Shown here: one piece after another, positions 9,774 through 43,343 of the stretch
Position numbering within the stretch: the first letter of the stretch is position 1
How the letters are laid out: the number at the start of each line of letters is the position of its first letter
NCBI GenBank assembly: GCA_037442805.1
Contig: JBBIPO010000008.1
Location: 1 to 44,280 of the forward strand
Source of the DNA: Deltaproteobacteria bacterium
GTDB lineage: Bacteria > Myxococcota_A > UBA9042 > DTJE01
DNA: 44,280 nucleotides
Direction of reading: 5' to 3'
Translations under genes and position numbers: made by a program
The notes under the pieces: model-generated
Seen by the model: only the letters and a program-made list of their open reading frames with translations
Databases searched by the model: none
What the model was told of the DNA's origin: nothing

Positions 9774-9953
9774 CCCGGGTCGGGCCTCCGGCATCCGGGG
9801 CCCGGGATCCGGGGTCCGGGGTCGGGGGTCCGGGGTCCGGCAGGGACTCCGTGGGGGACACGGACTTCGACACGGACACGGACACGGCCACCGACACCGT
9901 CACGGTCACGGTCACCGACACGGTCACCGTCCCCCGTCACGGTCCCGGTTTCC
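9774..9953 (-). repeat. bipartite tandem-repeat element, copy 1 (about 10 heptamers plus about 16 hexamers)
   Basis: On + strand: (CCGGGGT)-like units 9774-9843, junction CCGGCAGGGACTCC, then G[A/T/C]CAC[G/C] units 9857-9953. It is the reverse complement of copies 2 and 3. Confidence 0.9.
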
Positions 9954-10039
9954 GTGAGGACCACGGGCGTTCCTTACTCCTTGACCGCGCCGAGAGGGTT
10001 CGATAGACAGACACGGGCCCGGTGGGTGAGAGGTGCCAC

Positions 10040-11653
10040 GTGGGCGAGCGACGCAGGCGGTTCCTGTGGGGCGCGTTCGCGGTGTTCGTCGCGGGGACCG
10101 CGCGGGCCGCGGAGCCCGCGCGCGAGGACGGGTCCAGCCCGGCCGTCGCCGAAAATGGGAGCGCCGTGGTGCGCGGGACCTACTGGATTCATGGGACCTA
10201 CACCTCCGACTTCCCCCTCTCCGAGGACGGCGCGTTGTGGCGAGGTCGCACGTGGCCGGACGGCATCCGGGACGGACTCGACGTGGCGCTCGATCACCGC
10301 CTGCGGGTCGAGGCGGAGGCGCGCCTGTCGCGGGCCATCCGTCTGGTCGGCAGCGCCGACCTCGCCGGGTCCCTCGGTGGGGACACGACGGACATCGGGA
10401 AGGATTTCCTCCTGGTGCGGCGGGACCGGTCGCGGTTCTACGACCGCTCCACCGTGCGCGAGGCCTACCTGGAATGGACCTCTTCGGTCGGGGTGTTGCG
10501 GGTGGGTCAGATGACCTCGTCGTGGGGATTGGGGCTCGTCGCGAATGACGGCGCGGACCGGGAGGGCGCGTTCCACGACCCCCTCCTGGGCGACCTCGTC
10601 GAGCGCGTCCTGTTCGTGACGCGACCGCTCCAGGCGTTTTCGGATTCGCACCTGGCGCGCCACGTTCACCTCGGGCTGGGCGGGGACCTCGTGTATCGGG
10701 ATGACCTCGCGTCGCTGATCCAAGGGGACCTGGCCGCGGAGGGGGTCGCGCTCGCGTTCTACGACGGTCCCGTCGTGCGCGGCGGGGACCCGCTGTTCGC
10801 AGGGGTCTATGCGGCCTACCGGTTCCAGCGCGCCGACGACGGGGACCGCCTGAAGGTGGTGGCGCTGGATGCGGCATTCCGGCAGGTCGTCACGCTGGAC
10901 TCGCGCGGGACCGTCTTGACAGTGGAGGGGGAGGGGGTCTTCGCGTTCGGGTCGTTGCGGTTTTCGGACGGAGGCGGCCCGCCTCGGGCGAAGAACGGGG
11001 CGGACATCCGGCAGTGGGGCGCCGTCCTGCGAGCGGAGGTCCACGTCCCGGATGCCGGACTGCGGCCGGGGCTCGAGGCCGGCGTGGCCTCGGGCGACGC
11101 GGACCCGACCGACGACGTGGGCCGGGCATTCCGGTTCGACCCGGACTACCAGGTCGGGATGATCCTCTTCCAGGAGGTCCTGGGCCGCATGAGCGCCCTG
11201 GACCCGGAGCGCGTGTCCGCCCCGGACCTGCTCTACAAGGCCCCGAGCGGCTACAAGATGGCCGCGACCAACGGGGCCGTCACCAACGCGGTGTACCTGT
11301 ATCCGAGGGTGCGTTACTGGCCGTTCCCGGAGGTCGAGGCACAGCTGGCCTTCCTGTGGGCGCGAGGGCTCGCGCCGGTGGGCGGGGCATACCACGCGGC
11401 GGGCCATGGGGGGTATCCGCTTGGATACCGGGTAGACCCGCGGTCCTGGACCCGTGGGAAGTGGACGGAGCGCGACCTCGGGATGGAGGTGGACGCCGGG
11501 ATCGCGTACACGGTGCGATTCGGGGGCCGGGAGCGCCTGCGCCTGGGCGTCCAAGGCGGGTGGTGCCGGCCCGGCGCGGCCTTCCGGGACGCGAACGGGG
11601 ATCGGCTGCCCTCGATCTTCAAGGCGAGGGTGATGGCGGACCTCTCGTGGTAG
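10040..11653 (+). CDS. outer-membrane beta-barrel protein (alginate-export/porin-like)
   Basis: Signal peptide ending ARA; amphipathic beta-strands; REAYLEW...LRVGQM..WGLG motif; C-terminal aromatic beta-signal (ARVMADLSW). Confidence 0.7.
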   Translation: MGERRRRFLWGAFAVFVAGTARAAEPAREDGSSPAVAENGSAVVRGTYWIHGTYTSDFPLSEDGALWRGRTWPDGIRDGLDVALDHRLRVEAEARLSRAIRLVGSADLAGSLGGDTTDIGKDFLLVRRDRSRFYDRSTVREAYLEWTSSVGVLRVGQMTSSWGLGLVANDGADREGAFHDPLLGDLVERVLFVTRPLQAFSDSHLARHVHLGLGGDLVYRDDLASLIQGDLAAEGVALAFYDGPVVRGGDPLFAGVYAAYRFQRADDGDRLKVVALDAAFRQVVTLDSRGTVLTVEGEGVFAFGSLRFSDGGGPPRAKNGADIRQWGAVLRAEVHVPDAGLRPGLEAGVASGDADPTDDVGRAFRFDPDYQVGMILFQEVLGRMSALDPERVSAPDLLYKAPSGYKMAATNGAVTNAVYLYPRVRYWPFPEVEAQLAFLWARGLAPVGGAYHAAGHGGYPLGYRVDPRSWTRGKWTERDLGMEVDAGIAYTVRFGGRERLRLGVQGGWCRPGAAFRDANGDRLPSIFKARVMADLSW

Positions 11654-11776
11654 GTCGCACCGTGGAAGGTCGGGCGTACCATCGTCCCGTGCGTTCACGA
11701 TCCGTGGTATGAATAGCCGTCCCGGCGAGTCGGGGCCGGGACGAGGTTCCAGTCGAAGCACGAGGGGGGAAGCACG

Positions 11777-12898
11777 ATGGCGGACGACCAGAAGACGGAC
11801 GGGACCGAAGGCGCGGGAGGGGCGCGGACCGCCGGCCCCGGAGGAGGGGCCGGACCTTCCCTGGACGAACTGAAGGCGCGGCTCGGGATCGCGACGAAGG
11901 CGCCCACGGCGGCCAAGACCCCGTTGCGCAAGCTTACCCAGGAGGCGGACTTCCAGTTTTCGCTGAACGCGCCGGCCGAGGCCGCGCCGGTCCTGAAGGA
12001 GCCGAGCGAGGTCTCGGCGCTCGTGGTCCAGAAGAAGGGGCTCACGGCGCCGTGGATTGCCGCGTTCACGGTCCTCGCGGTCATCGCGCTGTTCGTGGGG
12101 CTCTTTTTCGGGAAGGTGATGAAGGAACGCGCCATCGAGAACTTCAAGATCAAGGAGGCGGCGTTCATCCTCGAGTATTTCCGCAAGGCGAGGGCCGAGA
12201 AACTGGCGGCCGGGGAGGGGACGACGATCGAGGTCATCAACGCCCACATAGACGACACGCTCGCAGTGTTTGGCGCGCTCCAGAAGGCCGCGACGCCCGA
12301 GGCCCAGGCCGCGGCGGGCCAGCAACTGGAGCAGTATCTCGAGCGCTGCCGCGCCTACCGGGACAAGCAGCCGGTCTTCAGCATCGAGGCGGTGTTCCCG
12401 GGGGTCATCTTCAACCAGGAACTCGCCGCGCAGGTGGTCCGCTACATCGAGGCGGTCCAGAGGCTGTACGACGAGACGGCCCTCTTGGCCCTGGAAGCGG
12501 ATACCCAGCACCGGGTCACGGAGCCCGAAGAGCGGGGCGAGATGATCGAGACGGTGTGGATCGAGCCGATGGAGGAGGGTGGCGAACGGTGGTTCAAGGG
12601 GGTCTTCGTCGCGCGAATGGACCGCGAGAATCCCGTGAAGAAGAACGGGACCGTCGAGTACCCGGTCCTCCCGGTCGGCGCCGAGAAGGGGTTCCTGGTT
12701 TCGACCACGTCGCTCGTGAAGGTGGACGTCTCGCCCATCGCGCACAACAAGTCGGCCCGCTACAAGGCCGCGATCCAGGCGCGCGTCCGGACGCGCCTGG
12801 CCAAGGTCAAGGAGGCGGCGGACCTGGCCGGGTTCTCGGGCCTGGAGGAGCGACTCCAGAAGGTGGCGGGGCGGTCCCCGTTCTTCACGATCTTCTGA
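11777..12898 (+). CDS. hypothetical single-pass membrane protein
   Basis: GAGGGGG SD, strong GC3 codon bias, one TM helix (WIAAFTVLAVIALFVGLFFG), helical C-terminal part. Confidence 0.75.
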   Translation: MADDQKTDGTEGAGGARTAGPGGGAGPSLDELKARLGIATKAPTAAKTPLRKLTQEADFQFSLNAPAEAAPVLKEPSEVSALVVQKKGLTAPWIAAFTVLAVIALFVGLFFGKVMKERAIENFKIKEAAFILEYFRKARAEKLAAGEGTTIEVINAHIDDTLAVFGALQKAATPEAQAAAGQQLEQYLERCRAYRDKQPVFSIEAVFPGVIFNQELAAQVVRYIEAVQRLYDETALLALEADTQHRVTEPEERGEMIETVWIEPMEEGGERWFKGVFVARMDRENPVKKNGTVEYPVLPVGAEKGFLVSTTSLVKVDVSPIAHNKSARYKAAIQARVRTRLAKVKEAADLAGFSGLEERLQKVAGRSPFFTIF

Positions 12899-13577
12899 CG
12901 CGCCGATCGAGGTCCCGGAGCGTCCACACCAGGAAGAGCCACAGAAGGGCCACGATGGGGAGGGTGGCGAAGTACCAGAGCCCACCCTTGTAATTGAGAT
13001 AGTTGTAAAGACCATGATACACGGCGGCGAGGGCGAGTCCCAGGTGGACCGACCAGGACGCGCCGCCCCTTCGCAGGGACTCCCCGAGCCCCCATCCCGA
13101 GAACGCCGCGAAGAGCATGTGCACGAACGGGACCACGGCGGAGCGTCCCAGGTCCGGGCCTCCGGTGGCCCACATCGCGTACCAGTTCTCGGCTGTGGCG
13201 AAGCCGAGTGCGGACGCGGTCGCGAGCACCAGGCAGTCCGAGGGAACGCTCCAAGCCGGCCGCATGGTGGCGACCAGGACCACGGCCGCGAGTTTCGCGC
13301 ATTCCTCGATGGGACCGACCACGGCCAAGAAGAACACGGCGCGCGCGGCGTCGTCCTCGGATGCGCCCGAGACGAGCGGGCGATACACGGCCAGGGTCTC
13401 CAGGTCCTCGAACAGAAAGAAGGTCGCCGCCGCCGCGACCATCCCGAACACGAAGGTCAGCGCCAGAGATGGCCATCCCAGGGCCCCGTGCCGGGTCCGT
13501 CCGCGGATGAAGGCCAGGAACAGACCCGACGGGATGAGGCACGTCAGAAGGGTTCCGGCAAGTTCGGGCCACGTCAT
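12885..13577 (-). CDS. prsW: PrsW-family intramembrane glutamic/metalloprotease
   Basis: Motifs GPIEECAK, ALGFATAEN, VH, YHGLYN; polytopic membrane protein. Confidence 0.85.
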   Translation of the reverse strand: MTWPELAGTLLTCLIPSGLFLAFIRGRTRHGALGWPSLALTFVFGMVAAAATFFLFEDLETLAVYRPLVSGASEDDAARAVFFLAVVGPIEECAKLAAVVLVATMRPAWSVPSDCLVLATASALGFATAENWYAMWATGGPDLGRSAVVPFVHMLFAAFSGWGLGESLRRGGASWSVHLGLALAAVYHGLYNYLNYKGGLWYFATLPIVALLWLFLVWTLRDLDRRVRRS

Positions 13578-13629
13578 GACCCGATTGTCCGGGCGTATCC
13601 CGGCGGACGCAAGGGGACCCCACGCGCAT

Positions 13630-13659
13630 TTGACGAACGGAACCCGAAGGGGATACTCT
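13630..13659 (+). promoter_or_regulatory. putative sigma70 promoter for the kinase gene
   Basis: TTGACG, 18-bp spacer, TACTCT, ending 21 bp before ATG 13681. Confidence 0.45.
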
Positions 13660-13680
13660 ACGCTGTGGGGAACCCAGGCC

Positions 13681-15210: not shown

Positions 15211-15263
15211 GGGGAACCAGGGGCAGGTGCGCTCCGGGACGGCAGGAAACCAGGGGGCACGAC

Positions 15264-15415
15264 ATGGGAAATGGGATACCGGAGACCGGAGACGGGAAAC
15301 GGGTGAGTGGGGAGGCGACGAAGCGCGCGCGAAGCGCCTTCGGACTGCCGCGTCCTGACGCAGCCTGGTCGTGGAAGCGGATTGCCCACGCCCACACCTA
15401 CGCCCACGCCCACGG
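15264..15415 (+). repeat. degenerate heptamer array (7 units) plus GCCCAC hexamer array
   Basis: ATGGGAA ATGGGAT ACCGGAG ACCGGAG ACGGGAA ACGGGTG AGTGGGG (15264-15312) and GCCCAC GCCCAC ACCTAC GCCCAC GCCCAC GG (15384-15415). Confidence 0.75.
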
Positions 15416-16565: not shown

Positions 16566-16638
16566 CCGTCAGCATTGGAAAAATCTTTATCGAGATGATA
16601 TCGTATTGAAATCATTGAATCCATTCGAAGACCGGGTC

Positions 16639-17925: not shown

Positions 17926-19366
17926 CGGGGCGCTCCCACGCCGGGGTGAAGAACTCGCCGGGGCCCAGGTCGAGGGCCCGCGCGCCCCGGCCGTCCCGGG
18001 TCATCACGAAGAGGCGCTTGGGTCCCTGGCGGGTCGAAGTGAAGACAAGGAGGCGACCGTCCGGCGAGAACGAGGGCTCCTCGTCGTCCCAGGGTCCGGC
18101 CGTCAGACGCGACACGAGATTCGTGGCGAGGTCGTACCGCCAGATGGAGAAGCGCCCCCCCTCGCCCCGGCTCTGGTAGGCGATGGAGGACCCGTCGGGG
18201 GACCAGTCGGGGCTCGTGTTGTACGACCCGGGGAGCGGCAGGGGTCTCTGCCCGGACCCGTCCGCTTCCATGACAAAGACGCTGGGACCTCCGAAGCGGT
18301 CCGAGACGAACGCGATCTGGCGACCGTCCGGGGACCACGAGGGGGAGGAATCAATGCCCGGCGCGGTCGTCAGACGGGCGCGGACCTCGCCGGTGCGTGG
18401 GTCGAGCAGAAAGAGGTCCACGTTTCCGTCTAACGCGAGCGTGACGGCCACAGCATCCCCTCCCGGCGAGAAGGACGCTCCGGTGTTGAGGCCCGGACGG
18501 GCCGACAGGACCCGGACGGACGAGTCCGACCGCCCCGCGCGCTCGACCAAGTACAGGTCCGGATTGCCGGAGCGGTAGCCCGTGAAGACCAGGGCCCCGC
18601 CGAACCCCCAGGCCGGCAGGATGGCGAGGACCCCGTCGGCGCTGACCCGGACCGGGGTGGCGGACCCGAATTCGATGAACCACACCTCCTTGGGCACGTT
18701 TGGGGTCGGACGATGCGAGTAGGCGATCCGCGTCCCGAAGACGCCTGGACGCCCGGTGATGCAGGACAACAGCGCGGACACGTACCGGTGGCCGAGGGCC
18801 TCGACCCGGTCGGGCGGGACCACGACGTCCGCGCCGCCGATGCGCAGGGTGTCCCCTTCCTCGGTCAGGTAGGCCCGGAGGCGAACGGCGAGCGCCTGCC
18901 CCGGGGCCGGCGACATCTCGGCGACCACGACGAGATACGCGCCGGCCTCCCTCCAGCCGAGGTAATCGAAGGTCACCTCGTTCATCCATGTCCACCACGC
19001 CGGGGAGGGACGGGTATCGGGCGACAGGACGTAGAACACCCCGGACAGCTCGAGGTCCCGGGCCAGGGTCGCGGCCAGGTGCGCGGCGGGTTCCGCCAGG
19101 TCCCCGCGTGGAGTCAGGTCCAGGGCGAGCGGCCACGCCACCGGGATCAGGGGCATGGGCCCGGCGAAGTCGTAGCCGAACTGGCCGCACCGCGGGTCGT
19201 CGGGCGTGGGGGTCGGGAAGGGGTCGGGGCCCGCCAGGGCGGGGAGGGAGACGGCCACGAGGACCAGCACGAGCGCGTACCAGGGCGGCTCCCGCCTGTG
19301 GGACTGGTCACGGTCGGCGTTCAAGGTCCCGTTCTCGCCCACGCCCACGCCTACGCCCACGCCCAC
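17888..19366 (-). CDS. tolB: TolB-like periplasmic beta-propeller (PD40 repeats)
   Basis: DLELSGVF N-domain, GVFGTRIAY, repeated PSWSPDG/FSPDG, FVSDRFGGP; last gene of tolQRAB. Start uncertain because it lies in a hexamer repeat. Confidence 0.88.
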   Translation of the reverse strand: MGVGVGVGVGENGTLNADRDQSHRREPPWYALVLVLVAVSLPALAGPDPFPTPTPDDPRCGQFGYDFAGPMPLIPVAWPLALDLTPRGDLAEPAAHLAATLARDLELSGVFYVLSPDTRPSPAWWTWMNEVTFDYLGWREAGAYLVVVAEMSPAPGQALAVRLRAYLTEEGDTLRIGGADVVVPPDRVEALGHRYVSALLSCITGRPGVFGTRIAYSHRPTPNVPKEVWFIEFGSATPVRVSADGVLAILPAWGFGGALVFTGYRSGNPDLYLVERAGRSDSSVRVLSARPGLNTGASFSPGGDAVAVTLALDGNVDLFLLDPRTGEVRARLTTAPGIDSSPSWSPDGRQIAFVSDRFGGPSVFVMEADGSGQRPLPLPGSYNTSPDWSPDGSSIAYQSRGEGGRFSIWRYDLATNLVSRLTAGPWDDEEPSFSPDGRLLVFTSTRQGPKRLFVMTRDGRGARALDLGPGEFFTPAWERPVSGAAPARAVRP

Positions 19367-19368
19367 GG
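19337..19368 (+). repeat. GCCCAC hexamer array, 31/32 identical to 15384-15415
   Basis: GCCCAC GCCCAC GCCTAC GCCCAC GCCCAC GG. Confidence 0.85.
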
Positions 19369-26189: not shown

Positions 26190-28889
26190 TCAGTCCGACC
26201 AGGTGACCATGACCGAATGCGACCCGTCCGGGACTCGGATGCGCAGGGAAGGGACGGCCTCCGCATCGAACCACCATCCCGGATCGGCTCCATCGAGCCC
26301 CCCCGCCGAGGCCGCCGGCGACAAGGCGACACCGTCCATCATCACCGCGTCCGGAGCCGTCGCCACGTCGTACACCTCGAACACAGCCCCGTCCCGGAAC
26401 GCGGTCCCCGCGTCGAATCCGATTCGAAGCGTCAGACCCTCGCGTTCCTGCTCGACATCGGTTCCATCGAAGACGTGAAAGACCGATGGCGCACCCGGGA
26501 ACACACGCACGTACAGGACCCCCGGCGTGGTCGCGTAGGAGTCCACACGGTCGGGTTCCGTCGTCGGCGCCAGCGAGTCAATCGTCGGCCTCAGCATGGG
26601 CACGAGGCCCCCCTCCCTCAGGTACAGGGGCAGTTTGTCGAGAGGCGCCGGCACCGTGGCCTTCCGAGGACCCTCCCACACGGTCCCGTCCCACCAGTCC
26701 ACCCACCGCCCCGCAGGAAATATCACGTCTTTCTCCCGCGCGTTCTGTTCGACCACCGGGGCCACCAGCAGGTCGTCCCCGAAGAAGTACAGGTCCCACG
26801 GGTGCTCGCCCAGGTCCGGCACCTGGAGGCCGAACGGGCGCTGGATGGGTCGTCCCGTTTCCGGAATCTGGAGCGCGTACGTCCACTCGTACGGCCACAG
26901 GCGCAGGTGCAGTCTCGCGTAGGTCCGGTACCAGTCGAGCATCTCCTCGTCGTACCCGTCCGGGCCGCCCGTCTCCCACGGCACGGTGCTCGCCCCGTTC
27001 CCGACCTGCATCACGGACGACAGCGCGGTCTGCTCGAACCACCGCGTGAACAACTCCTTGTCGGGGGGCGCATGGATGTAACCCCCCGTGTCCGCGCCGT
27101 AGAACGGGAAGCCCGACGGGCCGAGCGATAGCCCATAGATCATCGAGGCCGGCAACCCCCCGACCGCCTTCTTGGGGTAGCCGTCCTTCAGGAACTCGTG
27201 GCCATGGGGCCAGAACGTCGCGTCCAGGTCCCCGGGCCAGAGGATCGGGCCGTGAACCTGGTCCCCGGCCGTGGCGGTCCGCGTCAGCAAGAAGCCTCCG
27301 TCGTCGGGCAGCATCTCCGCATAGACGCGGTGGTACCACCACTGGTAACGATGGTGCATCGTGCGGTCATCGCTGCCGTCCGCGAACAGCCACGGCGTGC
27401 GCACCCCGAACGCCCCCAGGACCACCTCCTCCGCATAGGCCAGTTTGTACCCCTCCATCCCCAGGGCCCGATACCCCTCCAGCAACCCCTGCCACCACGC
27501 GTACGCTTGTGGATTCGTGAAATCCACGAGCGGTCCCCACTTGTCGAAGGTCACCCCGATGACTGGTGGAAAGTAGCCGTGTTCCTTGGCGAAATTGTAG
27601 TACGGGCGCGAATCCTCGTCCTTGGGGTCCACGTACGGCGCGTGCCACAGGGCCATGCGGAATCCCAGGGAGTGCGCCCGCGCCACCATCGCCGTAGGGT
27701 CGTCGTAGTCGGACGGTTCGAAGTCGAACGAGTTGACGGCGCTCGCGTAGGGACGGTCGATCCAGTATCCCGACGCGGCCAGGTCATGGTCCCGGATGGC
27801 CTCGAGGTCCGCGATCACCTTGGCCTGGTCCACCCCCTCGTCCCTCCAGACCCAGGGGCCAAGCGCCCAGGACGCGGGCAACCTCGGCGTCCCGGTCACG
27901 TCGTAGTAGTGTTTCGTCACGTCCAGGGGATGGCCGGCCGCGGCCAGGAAGAACACGAGCCCTTCCCGTGTCGCTTCCCCCATCCCCACCGTCACTTCCA
28001 CCAGGTCGTCCTCCTGCGTCGCGACATCGAAGACCATGCCCGCCAGCGAGTCCACGTACAGCCCCCACCCGCGCGTGCCGATCAGGAGCGGAATGCGCAC
28101 GTGCCCCTCGTTGTTCGCGCTCTCCGAATTCAGGTCCACCTCGATCTGCATGGCACGCGTGCGGCCCCGGTGATTGACGTGGTCGTGCCACGCCCCCAGT
28201 CCGTAGAACCCCTCGCTGGCGCTCGCCCTCGCGCGCAGGCGGACGTACGCCAGCGGGGGTCCCCCGGGTTCCGGCGTCAGGCGCACCTCGAAGCGGTCGT
28301 CCGCGTGAACCGCCGCGCTCAGCAACGCCGTCACCCCTTCCGGATATCGGAGCCTCGCCACGACCCGCTCTGGATCCACGGACAGGACCTCGGCGGCCAG
28401 GGGCTCCAGGAACGCGAGCCCGGCGGGAGGGTTCACGAACTCGGTCGCGCCCGAGGCGGGGTACAGGAACCACGGGTCGTAGGACAGGGCCGGATCCAGC
28501 GCATCCACACGGCCCAGCGCAAAGGCGTCGGGATCCAGCCGAAGCAGACGCTCGTCACCCCGCGACAGCGTGAGCTCGGCCGCTCCCGATGCCTTCACCG
28601 TGAACACGACCTCACTCGTGCCGGCCCGCAGGACCACGACCGTCTCCCCTGTCCCATCCGCATCCAGACCCGGGTCCGCAAGTTCCCGGTTGTCTCCCGG
28701 GAACTCCCCCGGCTGTCCCTGGTCCGCCTCCCATACGCCTTCCACGTTCGGTGCCCTCTCGCTCCCCAGGTCCCCCCTGTCCTCGGGTCCCGGAGCGGTT
28801 CCGCCTCCGCACGACGCCAGGATGGCCACATTCGCCAGCATCCATGCGACCTGGTTCCACCCGCTCGCCCGTCCGGTCCCGCAGGACAT
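26190..28889 (-). CDS. glycoside hydrolase family 31 lipoprotein (alpha-xylosidase/glucosidase-like); nucleophile position reads Ala
   Basis: GGAGGG SD; lipobox ILAS-C; FYGLG, WIDRPY, DFTNPQAYAWW, WPGD, SGFPFYGADTGGY, GRPIQRP, FGDDLLVAPV, PLDKLPLY. Confidence 0.9.
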   Translation of the reverse strand: MSCGTGRASGWNQVAWMLANVAILASCGGGTAPGPEDRGDLGSERAPNVEGVWEADQGQPGEFPGDNRELADPGLDADGTGETVVVLRAGTSEVVFTVKASGAAELTLSRGDERLLRLDPDAFALGRVDALDPALSYDPWFLYPASGATEFVNPPAGLAFLEPLAAEVLSVDPERVVARLRYPEGVTALLSAAVHADDRFEVRLTPEPGGPPLAYVRLRARASASEGFYGLGAWHDHVNHRGRTRAMQIEVDLNSESANNEGHVRIPLLIGTRGWGLYVDSLAGMVFDVATQEDDLVEVTVGMGEATREGLVFFLAAAGHPLDVTKHYYDVTGTPRLPASWALGPWVWRDEGVDQAKVIADLEAIRDHDLAASGYWIDRPYASAVNSFDFEPSDYDDPTAMVARAHSLGFRMALWHAPYVDPKDEDSRPYYNFAKEHGYFPPVIGVTFDKWGPLVDFTNPQAYAWWQGLLEGYRALGMEGYKLAYAEEVVLGAFGVRTPWLFADGSDDRTMHHRYQWWYHRVYAEMLPDDGGFLLTRTATAGDQVHGPILWPGDLDATFWPHGHEFLKDGYPKKAVGGLPASMIYGLSLGPSGFPFYGADTGGYIHAPPDKELFTRWFEQTALSSVMQVGNGASTVPWETGGPDGYDEEMLDWYRTYARLHLRLWPYEWTYALQIPETGRPIQRPFGLQVPDLGEHPWDLYFFGDDLLVAPVVEQNAREKDVIFPAGRWVDWWDGTVWEGPRKATVPAPLDKLPLYLREGGLVPMLRPTIDSLAPTTEPDRVDSYATTPGVLYVRVFPGAPSVFHVFDGTDVEQEREGLTLRIGFDAGTAFRDGAVFEVYDVATAPDAVMMDGVALSPAASAGGLDGADPGWWFDAEAVPSLRIRVPDGSHSVMVTWSD

Positions 28890-28997
28890 CGGTTCCCTCC
28901 GTGTCCGCCTCGCAGCAAAGCATCCGGCAGGCGCCCTACGCAGTCAACCGCCCGCACGCGGAGGGTTCAGAGCCGCTGCCAGCGGCAGACCGTCCCC

Positions 28998-29155
28998 GTG
29001 GACCGTGACCGTGTCGGACTCGGTGACCGCGGCCGTGACCGTGGCCGTGTCGGTGTCCGTGTCGGCGACGGTCACCGTGACCGTGGCCATGTCCGCCGCG
29101 GACACCCTGCCGGCCCCGGACCCCAGACGCCGGACCCCGGACCCCGGACGCCCGA
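28998..29155 (+). repeat. bipartite tandem-repeat element, copy 2
   Basis: About 17 [C/G]GTG[A/T/G]C hexamers, junction GGACACCCTGCCGG (29100-29113), then 6 CCCCGGA-like heptamers. Confidence 0.9.
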
Positions 29156-29225
29156 CTCGTGTCCCGGCCGGCGTGGTTTGGGCGTAGGATACGGCTCGCG
29201 GGAGCCCGTCTCGACGGAGCGAGGG

Positions 29226-30539
29226 GTGAAACCGGTCGTGGCCATCGTAGGGCGGCCCAACGTGGGCAAGTCCACACTGTTCAACCGCATCGTGGGCCGT
29301 CGCGCGGCCCTCGTCGCGGACGTGCCCGGCGTGACCCGGGATCGCCACTACGCCGAAGCCGAGCATGCGGGACGCGCTCTCGTGGTCGTGGATACCGGGG
29401 GATTCGATCCGGACGCGCGCGACGGAATACTGGCCCTGATGAAGCGCCAGGTCGCGCTCGCGATCGAGGAAGCGGACGCGCTCGTGGTGGTCGTGGACGG
29501 GCGGGAGGGGCTCACGCCCCTGGACGAGGCCGTGTGGTCCGTGGTTCGCGCCGGATCCAGGCCCGCGTACCTCGCGGTCAACAAAGTGGACCGCCCGGAC
29601 ATGACCCCGCTCTGCGCGGACTTTTTCGGCCTCGGGGTGGGCGAGGTCTTTCCGGTCAGCGCCGAGAACGGCGGGGGCGTGGCGGAGTTGCTGGACCGGC
29701 TCGTCGCGGACCTTGCGGCGCCCGTGGCGGGGGACGAGTCCGACGACGAGTCGGCAGGTCCGGTCCGCATCGCCGTGGTCGGCCGTCCCAACGTGGGCAA
29801 GTCCACGTTCGCCAACGCCCTGCTCGGGCGGGAGCGCTTCCTGACCTCGGACGTGCCGGGGACCACGCGGGACTCGGTGGACGCCCGCCTGCGGCGCGGG
29901 GACCGCGAGTACGTGCTCGTGGACACCGCGGGGATCCGGCGCCGCCGGGCCGTCGAGCCTGGCCTCGAACGGATGAGCGTGGCCCGCGCGGTCCAGGCCA
30001 TGGAGCGCAGCCACGTGGTCGCGTTGGTGATGGACGCCTCGGAGGGGGTGACGGACCAGGACAAGCGGCTCGCGGCGCTCGCGATCGAGCGCGGTCGCGG
30101 GATCATCCTGCTGGTCAACAAGTGGGACCTCGTCGAGAAGGTCCCCAGGGTCGGGGACGAGTACCAGCGCCGCCTGAGGGACGAGATGGCCTTCGCGTCG
30201 TTCGCCCCACGCCTGTTCGTGTCCGCCCGGACCGGTCGCAACGTCGCCCGCTTCTTGCCCCTGGTGGACCGCGTCCACGGCAACCTGTTTCGCCGCATCC
30301 CGACGCACGAGGTCAACCGCTTCTATCGCGAGGTGGTCCAGTCCCACCCGCCCACGGTCTCCGGCACCCGGACGGCACGCATCCGTTACCTGACCCAGGT
30401 CGAGGTCAACCCCCCGACGATCCTCCTGTTCCGGGGTGGCTCCGCCCCGATCAGCCCCTCGTACCTGCGCTTCCTCCAGAACGAGATGCGGGCGCGCTAC
30501 GACTTCGAGGGCGTCCCGATCCGGTTGATCCCGAGGTAA
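29226..30539 (+). CDS. der: ribosome biogenesis GTPase Der (EngA)
   Basis: Two G domains (GRPNVGKS x2, TRD, DTGG/DTAG, NKVD/NKWD) and a KH-like tail (YLTQ..NPPT, SYLRFL.N, FEGVPI). Confidence 0.97.
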   Translation: MKPVVAIVGRPNVGKSTLFNRIVGRRAALVADVPGVTRDRHYAEAEHAGRALVVVDTGGFDPDARDGILALMKRQVALAIEEADALVVVVDGREGLTPLDEAVWSVVRAGSRPAYLAVNKVDRPDMTPLCADFFGLGVGEVFPVSAENGGGVAELLDRLVADLAAPVAGDESDDESAGPVRIAVVGRPNVGKSTFANALLGRERFLTSDVPGTTRDSVDARLRRGDREYVLVDTAGIRRRRAVEPGLERMSVARAVQAMERSHVVALVMDASEGVTDQDKRLAALAIERGRGIILLVNKWDLVEKVPRVGDEYQRRLRDEMAFASFAPRLFVSARTGRNVARFLPLVDRVHGNLFRRIPTHEVNRFYREVVQSHPPTVSGTRTARIRYLTQVEVNPPTILLFRGGSAPISPSYLRFLQNEMRARYDFEGVPIRLIPR

Positions 30540-35506: not shown

Positions 35507-35537
35507 ACCCTCTCCGTGGGCCGCCCCGGAACTGCGG

Positions 35538-37691: not shown

Positions 37692-37707
37692 GAAAAGGTA
37701 CCGGGCC

Positions 37708-39579
37708 TCATTCGAGGTCGAAATAGAACTCGGCGCCCGGGGCCAAAGACGGCCGGTCCCCCATCGCGCGCACACCTCCGGTCAACAGGACGGAGCCCTC
37801 GAAGATCGAGCCGCGGATGCGGGTCGCCGCGTGTCCGAAACGCGGCTGGCCCAGGAGTCCCCTCCTCTCGACGGCCACGCGATCGCCGTCCAGCGTGAGC
37901 ACCAGGTAGGTGTTCAGCGCCGTGTTGTCGCGCAGTCCCCCGGTGACCAGCACCCTCCGCCCGTCCCTGAGGAGGGTCGCCTGATGGTACACCCGGCGGA
38001 GGTCCGACAGGTCGTCGTTGGACACCACGGATGCCAGATGAATTTCATGATTCTGGAAGTCGAATGTGAAGGCTAGAACCGTCGGATCCCCTCCTTCCGC
38101 CTGTCCGCCGAAGGTCCACACCCGGTTCCCCACCCGGACCGCCACGGCCCCGCTCAGGGCCTTCGGGATGCTCGCGTCCCCCGCGAGGACCGTGATGGTC
38201 TGGCTCGCGGCATCGAAGACCTCCGCGAAGGCCTGGCGCCCGCTGTCCGGTCCGTGGCCCCCGATGACCACATAGCGGGAGCAAAGTCCGGCGGCCTCCT
38301 CGTAACAGACGCCGGCCGGCGCCGCCCGGGGCGTCAGCCCTTCCATCGCGCGGCAGGCGAGGACCTTGTCCGCGGGGTCTTCTTCGGGCAGGGGGTCCGC
38401 GCACGCGAGCGTCCCCCCGGTCTCCAGCACGAACACGAAGGCGCGATCCCCCGGCTGGATCTCGGTGTCGGTCGCCTGGACCATCCCCGGGCGATAGAAG
38501 AAGGCCGGCGTTCCGGCCGGACCCTGAACGAGGGCGGCGACCCCGCCCGTGGCGGCGATGGGCAGGGCGTAGCGGGTCGCGACGTGCCTCGTCGCGTCGA
38601 GGAGGAAGGCGGTGGTCCTCGGCTCCACGGGGCAGGAGCCGGGCGAGGGGCAGGTGCGCTTCTCGGCCCGGAGGGCGGCTAGGACATGCTTGAAGCGGAC
38701 CGCCGGGACTCCTCCGAACAACCCCGCGATGTCCTGGGCTTCGTGCGCGGCCACCGCGGAGCCGGCCAGACCTTCGTCGAGGTTCGCGACAGCGGGGATC
38801 GCGAACAGGGACTTGTTCGCGTCGAACTCCTCCGTCCTGGGCGGGGACGAGGCGGACATCCCGGTCGCGTCCAGCGCGTCGTAGCCGCCGAGCAGCGTCA
38901 CGACCCCACCCGCGACCGACACGGCTGTATGAAAGGCCCGGCCGGCCTCGACGTTCAGGGGGAAGAGCGACGACAGGCGGCAGAATCCGTCGTCGCACAC
39001 CGCCAGGGGATGGACGCGGTACATCCAGCCCCCGGGGCAGTTTTCCGTCGCGTCGCAGGAAACCAGTTCGCGGCAGTAGGCGTCTTCCTCGCAAGGCAGC
39101 CCCGCGCCCGGGGGGTCGAGGTCCGGCCCCGGCAGCGGAAAGGCCGTGACCGCATCGCGGCGGTTCAACTGGATGTAGTAGAAGGCCTCCCCGGTCCCTT
39201 TCGCGGTGATGGACACGTCCCCTCGGACCCCGAGCGCGGACAGCGTCGCGCAGGCCGCGTCCGCGTAGCCCTCGAACACGATGGTATAGCCGCTGCCGAC
39301 CTTGACCCGGTTCAGCTGAAAGGCCAGGCTCGCCGCGAAGCACCCGGACTGAAAATAGGGCGAGTCGTTCGGCCAGTCCTTCGGCGCGCCGTGATAGAGG
39401 CGGATGCGATAATGCGTCACCGCGTTGTCGAGCAGGGGAGACGTCATGACCTGAAGCCGCAGAACGCCCTCGGCGTCCGCATCCGGGCCTTGCAAGACGG
39501 TCCCTGCGTCATCCGCGCAACCCGCCCACGCCCCGATGCACCCGACCAGAACCGCATGAAATACCGCGCGATACCGCAT
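37708..39579 (-). CDS. Kelch-repeat (galactose-oxidase-like propeller) lipoprotein
   Basis: Lipobox AWAG-C; Kelch blades RAFHTA...TLLGG, RVYHQATLL.DG.RVLVTGG, RFGHAAT...VLLTGG; Cys-rich linker. Confidence 0.75.
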   Translation of the reverse strand: MRYRAVFHAVLVGCIGAWAGCADDAGTVLQGPDADAEGVLRLQVMTSPLLDNAVTHYRIRLYHGAPKDWPNDSPYFQSGCFAASLAFQLNRVKVGSGYTIVFEGYADAACATLSALGVRGDVSITAKGTGEAFYYIQLNRRDAVTAFPLPGPDLDPPGAGLPCEEDAYCRELVSCDATENCPGGWMYRVHPLAVCDDGFCRLSSLFPLNVEAGRAFHTAVSVAGGVVTLLGGYDALDATGMSASSPPRTEEFDANKSLFAIPAVANLDEGLAGSAVAAHEAQDIAGLFGGVPAVRFKHVLAALRAEKRTCPSPGSCPVEPRTTAFLLDATRHVATRYALPIAATGGVAALVQGPAGTPAFFYRPGMVQATDTEIQPGDRAFVFVLETGGTLACADPLPEEDPADKVLACRAMEGLTPRAAPAGVCYEEAAGLCSRYVVIGGHGPDSGRQAFAEVFDAASQTITVLAGDASIPKALSGAVAVRVGNRVWTFGGQAEGGDPTVLAFTFDFQNHEIHLASVVSNDDLSDLRRVYHQATLLRDGRRVLVTGGLRDNTALNTYLVLTLDGDRVAVERRGLLGQPRFGHAATRIRGSIFEGSVLLTGGVRAMGDRPSLAPGAEFYFDLE

Positions 39580-39591
39580 GGGCGAACCTCC

Positions 39592-40542
39592 TCAATGAAC
39601 CGGCAGGGACGATGGATACAACGTCACGTCGCGGTCCGCGTAGGCCGGGTCCAGCGTGAACTGGGCCTGGCCACTGGCCGATGACGTCTTCCGGGAGGCC
39701 AGGACGACGGCCGTGGTCCCGGCCCCGATGACCACGGCCCCCACCGCGGTCCAGAACCACCACGTTTCGTAGAACGCGGTCTCCTGTTCCTCGCGTCCCT
39801 TCGTCGGAACGGGCCCGGCGGGGACCGGGACCTCCAGGGGGGTCAGGGTCAGGGCGAGGGCCACGGTCTGTCCCGGTTCCACCTCCACGGCCTGCATCTT
39901 CTCGTCGTAGCCCACGCGCGCGGCCCGGATCACGTAGCGCCCCTTCTTGAGTCTCAGCGTCACGGGCGAGACCCCCACGAAATCGCGGTCCACGTAGACG
40001 TCCGCCCCGGGCGGGGTCGTCTGCACATCCACGCGGGCCAGGACCGACTCGGGCAGGGGTTCCGGCCCCAGGACCTTCTCGAGGGCGAGGACCAGCAGAT
40101 CCGGCACCTTGTCGCGGACCTCCGTGCCACCTTCGGGCGAGCGCGTCTCCTTCGTCCGAACGTCCACGAATCGAATCTGGACCTGGAACCGTCCCTCCGC
40201 CTCAGACACCTCGGAGTACAGGACGGCATCCGCCCCGCGGGCGGCCCCGATCGTCGAGAGGCACTCTGCATCGAGGTCCACGCACTCGGCGTCCACCATC
40301 AGGTCCATGGGGTCCGTGTCGGGAACCGGGAGGACCTCCAGGGTCGGGTACTTGCGCAGTTTCTCGGACACCTGACCGGTCAGGCGGTCCAGTTCCTGGG
40401 GGTCCAGCCGGTTGCTCGTCACGCGGAGGGGAAGGACCTTCGTCCGGGGCCGTTCTTGCGCGCGAAGCCAGGCCGGGACGAGCCCGACGACGGCCACGAC
40501 GGCCACGATCGAAAATCCGCATCGTCCTCGACTCGGTCTCAT
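39592..40542 (-). CDS. secreted PEGA-domain protein
   Basis: Signal peptide; PEGA TTPPGADVYVD.DFVGVSP..L.LKKGRY.I...RVGY; FYETWWFW followed by a TM helix. Confidence 0.85.
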   Translation of the reverse strand: MRPSRGRCGFSIVAVVAVVGLVPAWLRAQERPRTKVLPLRVTSNRLDPQELDRLTGQVSEKLRKYPTLEVLPVPDTDPMDLMVDAECVDLDAECLSTIGAARGADAVLYSEVSEAEGRFQVQIRFVDVRTKETRSPEGGTEVRDKVPDLLVLALEKVLGPEPLPESVLARVDVQTTPPGADVYVDRDFVGVSPVTLRLKKGRYVIRAARVGYDEKMQAVEVEPGQTVALALTLTPLEVPVPAGPVPTKGREEQETAFYETWWFWTAVGAVVIGAGTTAVVLASRKTSSASGQAQFTLDPAYADRDVTLYPSSLPVH

Positions 40543-40572
40543 TGCGAACCCTCAAGGATGAGACTGTCGGGT

Positions 40573-40601
40573 ATAGTAGAGGTGACCTGGCGGGAAGTCA
40601 A
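40573..40601 (-). promoter_or_regulatory. sigma70 promoter for the PEGA-Kelch-DUF2723 operon, overlapping a + strand TATAGT
   Basis: The minus strand reads TTGACT, 17-bp spacer, TACTAT; + strand TATAGT at 40572-40577. Confidence 0.65.
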
Positions 40602-40605
40602 ACCG

Positions 40606-41469
40606 ATGCTCGCGCCAGAGGGGGAGAGACCCGCGAGGACGATCGGGGCTCTGGTCGCGGTGCCGGCGGCGGTCGTGGCCACATGGGGGGTCCTTTGGGG
40701 ACAGGGCTGCGCCTCGGCCACCGCGTACCTGAAGGGTCCGACGCCACCGGCGGCCTTGCCCGACCCGCAGGTGCGCCTCGTGGTCCGGGCGCGCACGGAG
40801 GATGGGACGTGGAGCGCGGGCCGGGAGGCCATCGAGACCCCACAGGGCAGGTGGAGCGAAACGCAGTTGGACGCCGGCGATGCGGGCCTCGAGGTGGCGG
40901 GAACCGTGACCCGCGTCGTCCGGGGCGTGGCCCCGCGCTTCGGATTCCGGTTGGAGGTCGAGACCCCGGAGCGGGGCGCCGTCTTCGAGGTGGCGACGTT
41001 TCGAGAGATGCCGGACCTCGACCTGCGACCGGGCGCGGCCGTGACGGTCGTGGCCCGAACCGAGCGTGGTCGGCTCCGCGCGCTGGTCCGCGATGACACG
41101 GGCGATGTGTTCAGGCTGATCGTGGGGACCGGGGTCCCGGGCCCTGCCGGCGAGGGGGAGTTCGAAGTGAACCTGGCGAGCCGCGAGGCCTACCGGGAGG
41201 TCCAGTCCGGCGGGGACCTGTGCCACCGGACCCTCGTGCACCGGGCCGCGCGCGTGCGGTGGAGACCAGCGGGGGGCGCGGGAGGTGGCGAGGAGGCCAC
41301 GCTCGACCCCGGCGAGACGCGCGTCCTCTGCGAGGAGCGGGGGACGTGTCGCCACGTCGCGCTCGCGGACGCCCGCGAGACGGACGAGCAGGAGTGCGGA
41401 ACCCCCGAGCCGCCGTACTGGGCCCTCTGGTGGTCGCGCGTGCCGGCCGGCACGGCGGTCAAGCCATGA
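40606..41469 (+). CDS. hypothetical lipoprotein/exported protein
   Basis: Hydrophobic N-terminus ending GQG-C; beta-rich; its stop overlaps the next ATG. Confidence 0.6.
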   Translation: MLAPEGERPARTIGALVAVPAAVVATWGVLWGQGCASATAYLKGPTPPAALPDPQVRLVVRARTEDGTWSAGREAIETPQGRWSETQLDAGDAGLEVAGTVTRVVRGVAPRFGFRLEVETPERGAVFEVATFREMPDLDLRPGAAVTVVARTERGRLRALVRDDTGDVFRLIVGTGVPGPAGEGEFEVNLASREAYREVQSGGDLCHRTLVHRAARVRWRPAGGAGGGEEATLDPGETRVLCEERGTCRHVALADARETDEQECGTPEPPYWALWWSRVPAGTAVKP

Positions 41470-43343
41470 CGCCCCCTTGGGGGATCGCTTCCGGGGACGG
41501 TCCCGCCGTTCACGAAGGCGCGCTGTGCGCGCAGGAGCGTGACCGTGGCCGTGACGGAGACAGAGTCCGTGTCCGTGACCGTGTCCGTTATCGTGACGGT
41601 GACCGTGTCGGTGTCCGTGTCCGCCTCGGAGTCCCTTCCGGACCCCGGTCCCCAGATCCCGGTCCCCGGTCCCCGGTCCCCGTGGGGACGCGAGCGCCTG
41701 CTCGCGTAGGGCCGCGCGAGCGCCCGCTCGCGCGCGGTAGCGCCGGCGCCTGCCCGCGCTCCGCCTCATGGCCCTGTCTTTTCGTCCTCGTGACACTGGT
41801 CGCGCCTTCCGCCGCCCTTGCCTACGGCTCGCGGACGCACCGGACCATCACGCATGAGGCCGTCCGGGCGGTCCTGACCTGGCCCGACGAGGAGGTCGCA
41901 TGCCCGGAGGACACCGACCTCGGGGCCTTCCTGCGCTGGCTGCACGGCCAGGTCGCCTCGGCCGGCACCCCGGACGCGGCGGAGTTCCGCCGCCGCTGGC
42001 CCGACGCAGCGGGCTTCGACGCCTTCGAGGCGAAGGGGTTTCTCGACCTCACGCGCGACCCGGGCGTCCGGGTGGCCGGCGTGGATTTCCTGCCGTGCGA
42101 CGACGATGGGACCGCGCTCGGACTGCTGGCGACCGAGTCGGTCCGGCCCGACGACGACGGCCGCAACCTTTGGCGTCTGGCCGTCGGCCCGGACCGCCGG
42201 CCCCTCGCGGGTCCGATCCCCGAGGACCCGATCGCCCTGGACCTGGGCGGGCTCGACGGGCTTGCGTCCCAGGCGCACGCGCACTACCTGCTGGCCGAGA
42301 ACCCGGGCGGGTGGCTCGCGCGGGGGGAGGTCGCGCCCAGGCTCACCGCGTCCCCGCTCGCACTGTGGCGAGACCCCGCCCACTTCGCGGTCGCCACCGC
42401 GGTGCCGGGGGGTCCCTTCTCCCTCGGCGCGGACATGGCGATGGAGCACCTCCTGCTCGCGCTCCTGGCGAGGGCCTGGCCGGACCCCGAGCGCGGGGGA
42501 GCCCACCCTCGCCGACCCCTTCCCGCGGCCAAGCGGTTGTCGCTCGCATTCCTGGGACACGCGCTGCACTACGTCCAGGACGCCTCCGACCCGTTGCACA
42601 CCGTCCAGGTGGGGGACCCGTGCGTGGTGTGGCACGGGATGTCGGGGTTTGTGTGGCGGGCGCTGCTGACCGCAGGGGGGTACACAGGGCCGCTCGCGGC
42701 GGCGACCTCGGCCATCGCGGACACGGTGTCGAACCTGCATCTGTGGACCGAGTCCTTCTGGGACGCGCAGGACGTGGTTCGCGGGAACCAGGGCTGGGCG
42801 CGGGCGTGGGGCGCGGTGGCGGCAGCCGGGCGCGGCGACCTCCAGGGGGCGTTGCTCGCGGCCTGGCGGGCCGCCGAGGCCGTCCGCCCGTGGGGACCTG
42901 CCCTCTACGACGCCGCCTGTCGGGCCGTGTCACCGAGGGTTCTCGAGTACGGGGAGGTCCTGAAAGACGGGGCGTTCGACGCGGAGGCCCTCCTGGACGA
43001 CGCGGAAGCCGGCCGGGAGGTGGCGCGCATTGGACAGGAGGCCGCCCTGGTCGCCCTGGCCGAGAGCGTCGCCCTGGTCCGGGCCTATGTGGTCCTGGCC
43101 CCGCGCATGGACGACCCCGACACGAGGCGCGAGGTCGCGGCCCTTCTGGCGACCCGGGTGCGGGCCATCGCCCAGCGCGAGGCCCGCCTGGCCGCGTGGA
43201 CGAAGGACCACCCGGACGGCGTGCCGCCGCAGGGGGAGCCGGTCCGGATCCCCGCGGTCCTGGTGCTGGAGGCCGTCGCGGTCTTGCTCGTGGCCTGGTG
43301 GGCCGGTCGCCAGGTCCGCCGGTCGCACCGCCCGTCCTTGTGA
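41466..43343 (+). CDS. zinc phospholipase C/P1-nuclease-fold protein, exported, with C-terminal TM anchor
   Basis: Signal peptide ALA-YGSRTH; LGHALHYVQDASDPLHT and NLH..E zinc-ligand motifs; C-terminal TM plus basic tail. Start is either ATG 41466 (ATGA coupling) or GTG 41682. Confidence 0.7.
   Translation: MTPPWGIASGDGPAVHEGALCAQERDRGRDGDRVRVRDRVRYRDGDRVGVRVRLGVPSGPRSPDPGPRSPVPVGTRAPARVGPRERPLARGSAGACPRSASWPCLFVLVTLVAPSAALAYGSRTHRTITHEAVRAVLTWPDEEVACPEDTDLGAFLRWLHGQVASAGTPDAAEFRRRWPDAAGFDAFEAKGFLDLTRDPGVRVAGVDFLPCDDDGTALGLLATESVRPDDDGRNLWRLAVGPDRRPLAGPIPEDPIALDLGGLDGLASQAHAHYLLAENPGGWLARGEVAPRLTASPLALWRDPAHFAVATAVPGGPFSLGADMAMEHLLLALLARAWPDPERGGAHPRRPLPAAKRLSLAFLGHALHYVQDASDPLHTVQVGDPCVVWHGMSGFVWRALLTAGGYTGPLAAATSAIADTVSNLHLWTESFWDAQDVVRGNQGWARAWGAVAAAGRGDLQGALLAAWRAAEAVRPWGPALYDAACRAVSPRVLEYGEVLKDGAFDAEALLDDAEAGREVARIGQEAALVALAESVALVRAYVVLAPRMDDPDTRREVAALLATRVRAIAQREARLAAWTKDHPDGVPPQGEPVRIPAVLVLEAVAVLLVAWWAGRQVRRSHRPSL
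41538..41683 (+). repeat. bipartite tandem-repeat element, copy 3
   Basis: 16 CGTGAC/CGTGTC-type hexamers 41538-41633, junction GGAGTCCCTTCCGG (41628-41641), then 6 [A/T]CCCCGG heptamers. Confidence 0.9.

Follow-up and report, generated by a model that had tools for sequence, protein, structure and literature searches.

The short tandemly repeated repetitive (STRR) sequences of cyanobacteria are tandem heptamer repeats. Intergenic direct repeats of the heptamer TAACTGA occur in Beggiatoaceae, Cyanobacteria and Bacteroidetes, where they sit within a few nucleotides upstream of start codons; one Beggiatoaceae genome carries 169 heptamer sets, and the passages of that paper which deal with the scattered heptamer arrays of cyanobacteria and Beggiatoaceae give no known origin or spreading mechanism for them (MacGregor 2015, PMC4679880). 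Heptamer direct repeats of these two groups are also reported in bioRxiv 10.1101/2022.06.06.494920, and species-specific repeats in general are covered in PMC3372372. BrickBuilt, a Porphyromonas gingivalis transposable element of the miniature inverted-repeat type (MITE), is built with one 23-nt unit, has small inverted repeats at its ends and is present in 19 copies (PMC4596501). Here we describe an interspersed element present in a 44,280-nt stretch of DNA from a Deltaproteobacteria bacterium (GenBank assembly GCA_037442805.1, contig JBBIPO010000008.1, positions 1 to 44,280; this whole stretch is called the window). In this element a degenerate hexamer array is joined to a degenerate heptamer array through a conserved junction, and we relate it to arrays that flank genes for small four-helix-bundle proteins.

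Three copies of the element were found in the window, each with the same 5′ to 3′ plan of hexamers, junction and heptamers. Copy 1 (nhmmer bounds 9761..9946, minus strand) has hexamers from 9946 to ~9865, the junction at ~9864-9841 and heptamers at 9840-9787 followed by a tail. In copy 2 (28984..29164, plus strand) the hexamers at 28988-29085 are followed by a variant junction and by heptamers at 29110-29154. Copy 3 (41529..41699, plus strand) consists of hexamers at 41538-41623, a junction at 41624-41649 and heptamers at 41638-41682. Tandem Repeats Finder (TRF) located period-6 arrays at 9856-9927 (12 copies), 28988-29085 (16.2) and 41538-41623 (14.3), and period-7 arrays at 9794-9840 (6.7 copies), 29110-29154 (6.4) and 41638-41682 (6.4). 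Sequence reading, TRF and the nhmmer profile thus bore out the position and architecture that a preliminary description of the window had claimed for the three elements. Its figure of about 16 hexamers per copy holds as an upper end, since walking along the units gave 12 hexamers and 10 heptamers for copy 1 and 14 hexamers and 6 heptamers for copy 3; it had also allowed for a fourth copy, and the window contains three of this family, not four. The junction of copy 2 differs from the 22-mer consensus by two letters and lacks one more, and is therefore not counted by the substitution-only junction scan given below. As stated earlier, the element is not an array of clustered regularly interspaced short palindromic repeats (CRISPR): its units are 6 and 7 nt long and follow each other head to tail without spacers, whereas CRISPR repeats measure 24-48 nt and alternate with unique spacers.

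The window is part of a draft genome (G000) of 3.61 Mb in 315 contigs, with 69.5% G+C and a completeness of 94%. Repeats matching TIGR02232 (myxo_disulf_rpt), a model that matched 0 of 14 control genomes, indirectly indicate that the organism probably belongs to Myxococcota. A search of this genome with an nhmmer profile made from the three window copies gave 252 matches at E<1e-3, which is a lower bound because many matches are at contig ends. The junction 22-mer (up to 2 mismatches) occurred 139 times, against 0 for the reversed control. Its 15-mer core (up to 2 substitutions) occurred 249 times, against 40 for the reversed control, and 168 of the 249 core matches lay inside nhmmer matches on the same strand; these 168 are the junction-bearing copies of the following analyses. 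The suggestion that a real dispersed family with many copies was present genome-wide is confirmed by these counts. The nhmmer matches span 25,987 bp, of which 23,733 bp belong to the 376,491 bp left noncoding by a codon-usage gene caller, so that the family makes up ~6% of noncoding DNA. The two kinds of array are coupled: the junction was found just upstream of 108 of the 131 strict heptamer arrays (3 or more units) and within 70 nt downstream of 114 of the 150 strict hexamer arrays. Units were counted in 148 untruncated copies, after dropping the 20 of 168 that touch a contig end; the medians were 8 hexamers (range 0-19), 5 heptamers (range 0-10) and a length of ~100 nt. The consensus of the junction core is CCGTG-W-CCGCC-N-CGGAGTC[C/A]CTGCCGGACCCCGGA, most positions being conserved in at least 90% of 160 aligned copies, and that of the heptamer is C-C-G/C-G-A-Y-S.

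No inverted termini were seen in element copies. RNA folding of both strands of the three window copies was no better than that of shuffles (z = -0.5 to -1.45), in agreement with the earlier view that the element has no hairpin or terminal-inverted-repeat character. A junction hairpin was considered, as in 118 of 160 copies the U at -10 has a possible pairing partner (A or G) at -2; it was dropped because covariation was absent, and mutual information in 159 junction regions reflected loss of register only, with no pairing covariation.

Arrays in this genome are associated with genes of the family PF05635. To our knowledge, the 'four helix bundle protein' family is large and has no known role outside diversity-generating retroelements (DGRs). 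Four PF05635 matches were found in G000 and all four abut arrays. The gene at locus C18 encodes a protein of 120 aa that matches PF05635, TIGR02436 'four helix bundle protein' (42.6 bits, cut-off 24) and PDB entry 2GSC (E = 2.8e-4). PF05635 is the family of the DGR accessory protein Avd, and 2GSC is the family representative that has been aligned with Avd (PMC10053308). The C18 gene has direct copies of the element on both sides; copies enclosing an open reading frame (ORF), such as one for a four-helix bundle, had been proposed as something to look for, and the search was thus positive. These two flanking copies rank 53rd in similarity among 12,720 pairs. At both C18 and C143 a reverse-complemented element, running from heptamers through the junction to hexamers, follows immediately on the stop codon. 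The C112 gene has a forward element that starts ~15 nt past its stop codon, and inverted (GTGGGC)n and (GCCCAC)n arrays enclose the gene at C305. An element lies no more than 60 nt downstream of three of the four PF05635 genes, compared with 73 of the 2787 called genes (binomial P = 7e-5), and the only genes to share element ends are three of these four. Ten genes of G000 have an element copy on both sides; the four that were scanned are MnmA-like, a ClC channel, an IgGFc-binding-like protein and the four-helix-bundle gene.

The same arrangement recurs outside this genome. PF05635 genes are present in 45 of 107 genomes of the class. We read the flanks of all 3 matches in G001, another species of the same genus, of 13 of the 18 in G020, of 16 genes from 10 other genomes of the class and of the PF05635 genes in 8 of 33 plasmid records obtained by tblastn, which are mostly from Nostoc, Calothrix and Trichormus, with Riemerella and Gemmatirosa in addition; the class genomes outside G000 and G001 were chosen by hand, two of them because hexamer matches lay nearby. 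By TRF (period 5-9, 3 or more copies, no more than 150 nt after the stop codon) an array followed the stop in 28 of 44 PF05635 loci, namely 3/4 in G000, 1/3 in G001, 9/13 in G020, 7/16 in other genomes of the class and 8/8 on plasmids (cyanobacteria, Gemmatirosa of the Gemmatimonadota); the background for all genes of G000 was 198/2787 (7.1%). Degenerate arrays that are visible by eye, for example that at C112, escape TRF. In the eight plasmid loci the array starts between 20 nt inside the 3′ end of the ORF and 79 nt after the stop codon, and in five of them a second array ends no more than 6 nt before the start codon. The units of these arrays are lineage-specific (TCAGAAT, TCAGGAG, TCTGCCC, AAAAGCT, CTGTCAC, AGGAGATA and CTCCTGCC are examples); the bracket architecture is found across phyla. 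The plasmid genes are often placed in tight operon gaps, between cas6 and cas4 or between cas10 and cmr3. Cases within CRISPR-Cas operons were seen in Pseudanabaena pPg_01 (L098), Anabaena sp. 90 pANA02 (L099) and Picosynechococcus (L100).

Where the two arms of such loci are inverted, they are predicted to pair. In minimum-free-energy folds of seven chosen inverted-arm loci, including G000:C305, the first and last 70 nt paired by 24-52 bp in all seven; the folds were computed without a shuffle control, and the pairing is a consequence of the inverted arrays. Several families of the class have a GC-rich leader hairpin, CAAGGGC...GCCCTTG, that recurs ~50-120 nt upstream of their PF05635 genes (L070-L093; G000:C18:8780-8950), and a 'GACAAGGC...CAGTCCGAAGGCGCGC' module that precedes many G000 elements is loosely similar to its left half. 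Eleven of the array-flanked gene loci, including the leader hairpin, gave 0 matches to Rfam at E<=0.1. In a literature that consisted mostly of open-access texts we found no report tying PF05635/TIGR02436 genes to such arrays, so that an earlier description is possible; the passages searched in PMC4679880 do not mention four-helix-bundle or intervening-sequence genes.

The bipartite element is restricted to one genus and its sequence turns over rapidly there. The junction was absent from 40 relatives searched, including G001; in one genome for each of 185,579 species it gave 3 chance matches without arrays and otherwise none, and in metagenome contigs of JGI it was present in 0 stretches. G001 has elements of the same plan: (CAGTGW)n-type hexamers, then a junction that differs from that of G000 and is longer, then (CCCCGGA)n heptamers as in G000, often in tandem. 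A pattern of four heptamers matched 301 times in G000 and 535 times in G001, with 0 matches of the reversed control in G000, G001, G020 and G038. The same pattern was found 7 times in G020, which is of the same order and another family, 21 times in G038, where the site read is coding, and at most twice in any of the other 103 genomes of the class. G020 contains a mosaic that is related and combines (GRCCGT)n hexamers with hairpins and with (CCCGAYS)n heptamers.

Elements have been gained or lost between close relatives, as comparison of orthologous sites, proposed in the preliminary description, revealed. Two G000 copies are at sites spanned by G001 contigs and both sites are empty in G001: a 29-nt spacer corresponds to 165 nt at G000:C7:18533-18634, and ~18 nt correspond to a ~230-nt block of module, element and hairpin at G000:C25:24682-24791. 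Around window copy 3, 371 nt of the window correspond to 110 nt in the metagenome contig X2 (~91% identity to the window); this was the only informative spanning metagenome contig, and the site of copy 2 was not bridged. The genes flanking the window copies are on different contigs or in different synteny in G001, and the same is true of the C18 four-helix-bundle locus. Inverted copies also mark an inversion. The DnaJ/CbpA-like gene at C25:12377-13306 (1 kb), which lies between inverted copies, is inverted in G001 (G000:C25:12207-13634 versus G001:C212:14036-15461), and at the boundaries in G001 there is an element of its own type on one side and a heptamer remnant on the other. One other G001 contig (C40, L046) has AT-rich ends, at 1-700 and 5800-6000, that are unlike the rest of it and look like chimeric assembly or foreign DNA.

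That such arrays adjoin Avd-like genes both in this genome and in remote phyla points to a selfish gene cassette not described so far. The explanation that we prefer, and to which we assign a probability of roughly one half, is that the elements are noncoding, ORF-less copies of the array-type flanks of such a four-helix-bundle (PF05635/TIGR02436) cassette, amplified in one genus. The window copies are accordingly classed as derivatives or flanks of the cassette and not as cassettes, because they have no ORF and only three copies in the genome abut a PF05635 gene. The cassette would carry as its only gene the small Avd-like four-helix-bundle protein, whose family is also found inside intervening sequences (IVSs) of 23S rRNA, and in many lineages this gene would be bracketed by tandem arrays of a lineage-specific unit of 6-8 nt. 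The IVSs of 23S rRNA are excised by RNase III, and in rRNA intervening sequences with this ORF the ORF is enclosed by paired inverted ends. Inverted arms would likewise pair in the transcript of the cassette and loop out its ORF. In the present genus the flank would have become bipartite, (GTGWCC)n followed by the fixed junction and (CCCCGGA)n, and would have multiplied to ~170-250 copies, most of which stand alone or form head-to-tail chains and many of which are attached to hairpins of the repetitive extragenic palindromic (REP) type. The arrays may serve as cis-acting ends or binding sites recognized by the cassette's protein. Solo copies could then arise by trans-mobilization or, as solo long terminal repeats do, when flanking direct copies recombine, and unit number could be altered by unequal recombination rather than by simple slippage of one unit. 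Copies would have been homogenized in the genus and would now act as substrates for deletion, duplication and inversion. A broader proposal is put forward only tentatively: PF05635/TIGR02436 genes with flanking 6-8-nt arrays may constitute a widespread, undescribed class of mobile cassette with the arrays as its recognition sites, of which the orphan heptamer arrays of cyanobacteria and Beggiatoaceae, as well as the ~170-250 elements described here, may be ORF-less offspring.

A number of observations weigh against the cassette explanation. There are only 4 four-helix-bundle genes for ~170-250 elements, and BLAST revealed no widespread remnants of PF05635 genes or of the leader beside ORF-less copies. 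No array was detected by TRF at 16 of the 44 PF05635 loci, and the nominal binomial P of ~1e-21 for the association at these loci is overstated, because paralogues are non-independent, loci were chosen by hand and the background comes from G000 alone. Within 400 nt of each other, element neighbours of the focal family form direct, head-to-tail chains (39 direct against 1 inverted), so the stem-forming model with inverted arms is not applicable to this family. No target-site duplication was readable at the two empty sites, a weak result given that the flanking spacers have diverged. Identity reaches 92% over 75 nt in the best pair of copies and has a median of 71%; since no near-identical copies exist, there is no sign of a recent copy-and-paste burst. 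Finally, in other genomes of the class lipoprotein-like ORFs contain some of the hexamer arrays, so that not every array is noncoding.

The strongest of the alternatives, although we regard it as unlikely, is a tolerated or domesticated mosaic similar to REP sequences and bacterial interspersed mosaic elements (BIMEs), with no tie to four-helix-bundle genes; it would have spread by recombination or by an unseen transposase, and any role would be structural or at mRNA 3′ ends. Support for it comes from the context of the copies, which are high in number, intergenic and chained in fixed orientation with GC hairpins and other modules. Directly before the hexamers there is often a triple REP-type GC hairpin, a 'GACAAGGC...CAGTCCGAAGGCGCGC' module or a (GTTTCCC)n array, and after the heptamers the same GC hairpins or two other modules. 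In 70-nt flanks of the 148 complete copies, 54 of 59 modules of types R1, B, Q2 and D were in the plus orientation relative to the element; counts of module signatures are only qualitative, as reversed controls are high for these short GC-rich motifs, and the palindromic look of neighbouring modules was judged by reading only. A k-mer census of G000 detected several further and more abundant families, including the (GCCCAC)n arrays (top 14-mer count 139). Other high-copy noncoding repeats are 'CGCAATCCGCGC...GCGCGGATTGC' hairpins (~94 copies) and a 56-nt 'AGGCACCGATGAGACCCGCATGG...' unit (~79 copies), and for 3.6 Mb the genome is unusually rich in repeats.

Placement relative to genes was determined in the element's own orientation for the 94 of 168 copies flanked by called genes left and right; the remainder are 63 at contig edges and 11 within genes. 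Flanking genes were oriented '--' in 40 cases, '-+' in 24, '++' in 18 and '+-' in 12. The downstream gene is therefore co-oriented in 42 and opposed in 52, and the preliminary statement that all copies point into a downstream gene does not apply genome-wide. The preference that it noted for divergent promoter regions was not seen either. In a second placement with corrected ends, 93 copies lay between two genes, and the co-directional, convergent and divergent classes contained 57, 12 and 24 of them, against 57.5, 10.6 and 24.9 expected from intergenic bp. The sole bias was in co-directional regions, where 39 copies were antisense and 18 sense (p = 0.0075; counted by region, 31 versus 16, p = 0.04). 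The heptamer end is at a median of 44 nt from a gene's 3′ end; this distance and the antisense excess fit a REP/BIME-like mosaic. A facing 5′ gene end is at a median distance of 131.5 nt when measured from the heptamer end, and of 162 nt when measured from the hexamer end.

What speaks against a REP/BIME-like mosaic is that the element itself is not palindromic and that the REP-associated tyrosine transposase (RAYT) was not found: the model PF01797 had 0 matches in G000 (94% complete) and in G001 and matched 6 of 14 control genomes. That no transposase lies near the elements had already been noted from the window; the RAYT result applies to both genomes, although a draft cannot prove absence. 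No transposase of a related autonomous element was found in G000 or G001 in this search, which was made with PF01797 only. Such a mosaic would also leave the adjacency at three of the four PF05635 genes and the bracket pattern across phyla without explanation. The earlier verdict that the element does not fit REP is in line with the results on palindromes and RAYT but has to be qualified, as the fixed-orientation chaining with REP-like hairpins and modules is BIME-mosaic-like.

Neutral microsatellite-like DNA growing by replication slippage, with small horizontally acquired genes landing in the same junk-rich spots, appears improbable. It could account for the wide range in unit number, for the distribution over intergenic classes as expected from bp and for the many copies at contig ends. 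However, the ~35-nt junction shows conservation of at least 80% per site among 160 copies, and hexamer and heptamer arrays are obligately coupled. Identical adjacent hexamers are rarer than chance, amounting to 5.1% against 8.8% in internally shuffled arrays (z = -4.6), which is the opposite of what one-unit slippage predicts. In the hexamer G1-T2-G3-N4-C5-C6, positions 1, 3 and 5 are fixed at 93-96%, position 4 is T, A or G and rarely C, and position 6 is C or G; position 4 is thus free except for the avoidance of C. Moreover, the arrays on cyanobacterial plasmids bracket the gene in tight operons such as cas6/cas4 with no other junk around.

Still less probable is a G-quadruplex or i-motif element, in which the heptamer complement (GGGGTCC)n would fold and regulate transcription or replication. 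Element matches contain 83 of the 291 noncoding G3x4 motifs while forming about 6% of noncoding DNA, with the G-rich strand tending to be sense with respect to neighbouring genes. On the other hand, canonical G3x4 motifs, with at least four G-runs of at least 3 G and loops of up to 7 nt, were present on the G-rich strand of only 54 of the 148 complete copies and G4x4 motifs of 13, indicating that a G-quadruplex is not a general property of the element, and the hexamer half and the junction have no G-runs.

We see little chance that the arrays were written by a reverse transcriptase (RT) through reiterative copying of a short RNA template, as in telomerase or in defence-associated RTs, perhaps with an Avd-like cofactor as in DGRs. 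The membership of PF05635 in the Avd family (PMC10053308) would agree with this, as would the sole RT found in G000 (G000:C235:1151-2752, L045), which has a C-terminal MutS_I domain (RVT_1 54 bits, MutS_I 33 bits) and is on a 4.6-kb contig with five element matches. Its best PADLOC and NCBIfam matches were generic RT or group-II-like. The G001 orthologue has no element beside it; as the adjacency is seen only in G000, this enzyme was rejected as the spreading activity. In addition, no RT adjoins PF05635 genes in the inspected flanks of the 44 loci, and adjacent units are non-identical.

That the arrays are relics or parts of coding low-complexity lipoprotein linkers, (V/D-T)n and P/G-rich, is hardly credible: hexamer arrays (G029, G038) and heptamer-like arrays (G038) do occur in lipoprotein-like ORFs and the hexamers show codon-like degeneracy on both strands, but the heptamer count is without a period of 3 (50/50/48 across residue classes) and only 11 of 168 copies are inside called genes and 157 outside, so that the element is noncoding despite that degeneracy, and hairpin modules follow the copies. 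Of the element matches in other genomes of the class, the two read proved to be hexamer arrays in such ORFs and were rejected as copies of the element. These long arrays (G029:C105, L013; G038:C206, L014), and heptamer-like arrays with a 21-nt periodicity at G038:C114 (L062), come just after the signal-peptide cysteine and encode linkers of the (D/V-T)n and PDPGPPT types. The same DNA motifs thus also serve as coding low-complexity sequence in the class.

In the window, copy 1 is situated between mnmG (7692-9551, minus strand) and a gene at 10022-11653 (plus strand), copy 2 between a GH31 gene (26190-28841, minus strand) and der (29226-30539, plus strand), and copy 3 between co-directional genes at 40582-41469 and 41790-43343. 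Of the downstream genes named in the preliminary description, mnmG (GIDA) and der were verified; the 'nuclease' at 41790-43343 was not, and, like the genes at 10022-11653 and 40582-41469, it has no Pfam match at 1e-5. A REP-like GC-hairpin module (41683..41760, plus strand) is chained to the 3′ end of copy 3; it belongs to a k-mer family of 97 copies and adjoins many other element copies, its orientation relative to the element being the same there. The mosaic system includes a second array family, represented by a (GGGAAAC)n-type heptamer array at 15266..15303 (TRF), directly followed by a reversed 'GACAAGGC...CAGTCCGAAGGCGCGC' module at ~15304-15375. Next to these is a (GCCCAC)n hexamer array (15384..15414) belonging to the family whose inverted arrays enclose the PF05635 gene at G000:C305, and TRF found a second (GCCCAC)n-type hexamer array at 19336..19367. 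Rfam covariance models gave 0 matches to the window at gathering thresholds.

In this genus the elements, at about 6% of noncoding DNA, break assemblies and mark rearrangement points, with consequences for binning, annotation and the interpretation of promoter regions. A link between arrays and four-helix-bundle genes would provide a testable explanation for both, in which the protein is the candidate trans-acting factor, the array is the candidate cis site, and an RNA stem is predicted.

None of the closest described systems, as represented largely by their abstracts and selected passages, has the hexamer-junction-heptamer plan. As far as those passages go, the STRR and TAACTGA repeats resemble the present element in having many intergenic tandem heptamer sets, a patchy distribution among lineages and no known spreading mechanism; they differ in that the element couples hexamer and heptamer arrays via a fixed junction, has degenerate units and is not confined to positions just upstream of start codons, being at median distances of 131-162 nt from 5′ ends with placement that looks random. 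BrickBuilt (PMC4596501) is likewise a species-specific intergenic element around a spacer-less tandem array with leader and tail, whereas the present element combines an array of 6-nt units with one of 7-nt units, lacks inverted ends and is ~10 times as numerous. We know of no microsatellite-type modules described for BIMEs. With REP/BIME systems that have a RAYT, as outlined in Nunvar 2010 (PMC2817692), the element shares high-copy intergenic modules, fixed relative orientation and adjacent GC hairpins; unlike them, it is not a palindrome, and RAYT was not found in G000 or G001. The 23S rRNA IVSs with their S23p/PF05635 ORF, and Avd of DGRs, share the protein family itself (PMC10053308). The predicted pairing of ends around the ORF in the seven inverted-arm loci is a further likeness to the IVSs. 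The cassettes considered here differ from IVSs in being free-standing between ordinary genes, in having tandem arrays of 6-8-nt units as arms and, in this genus, in that most arrays are ORF-less and directly repeated. By itself, therefore, the element is an interspersed tandem-array repeat, and its derivation from a four-helix-bundle cassette is the bolder reading.

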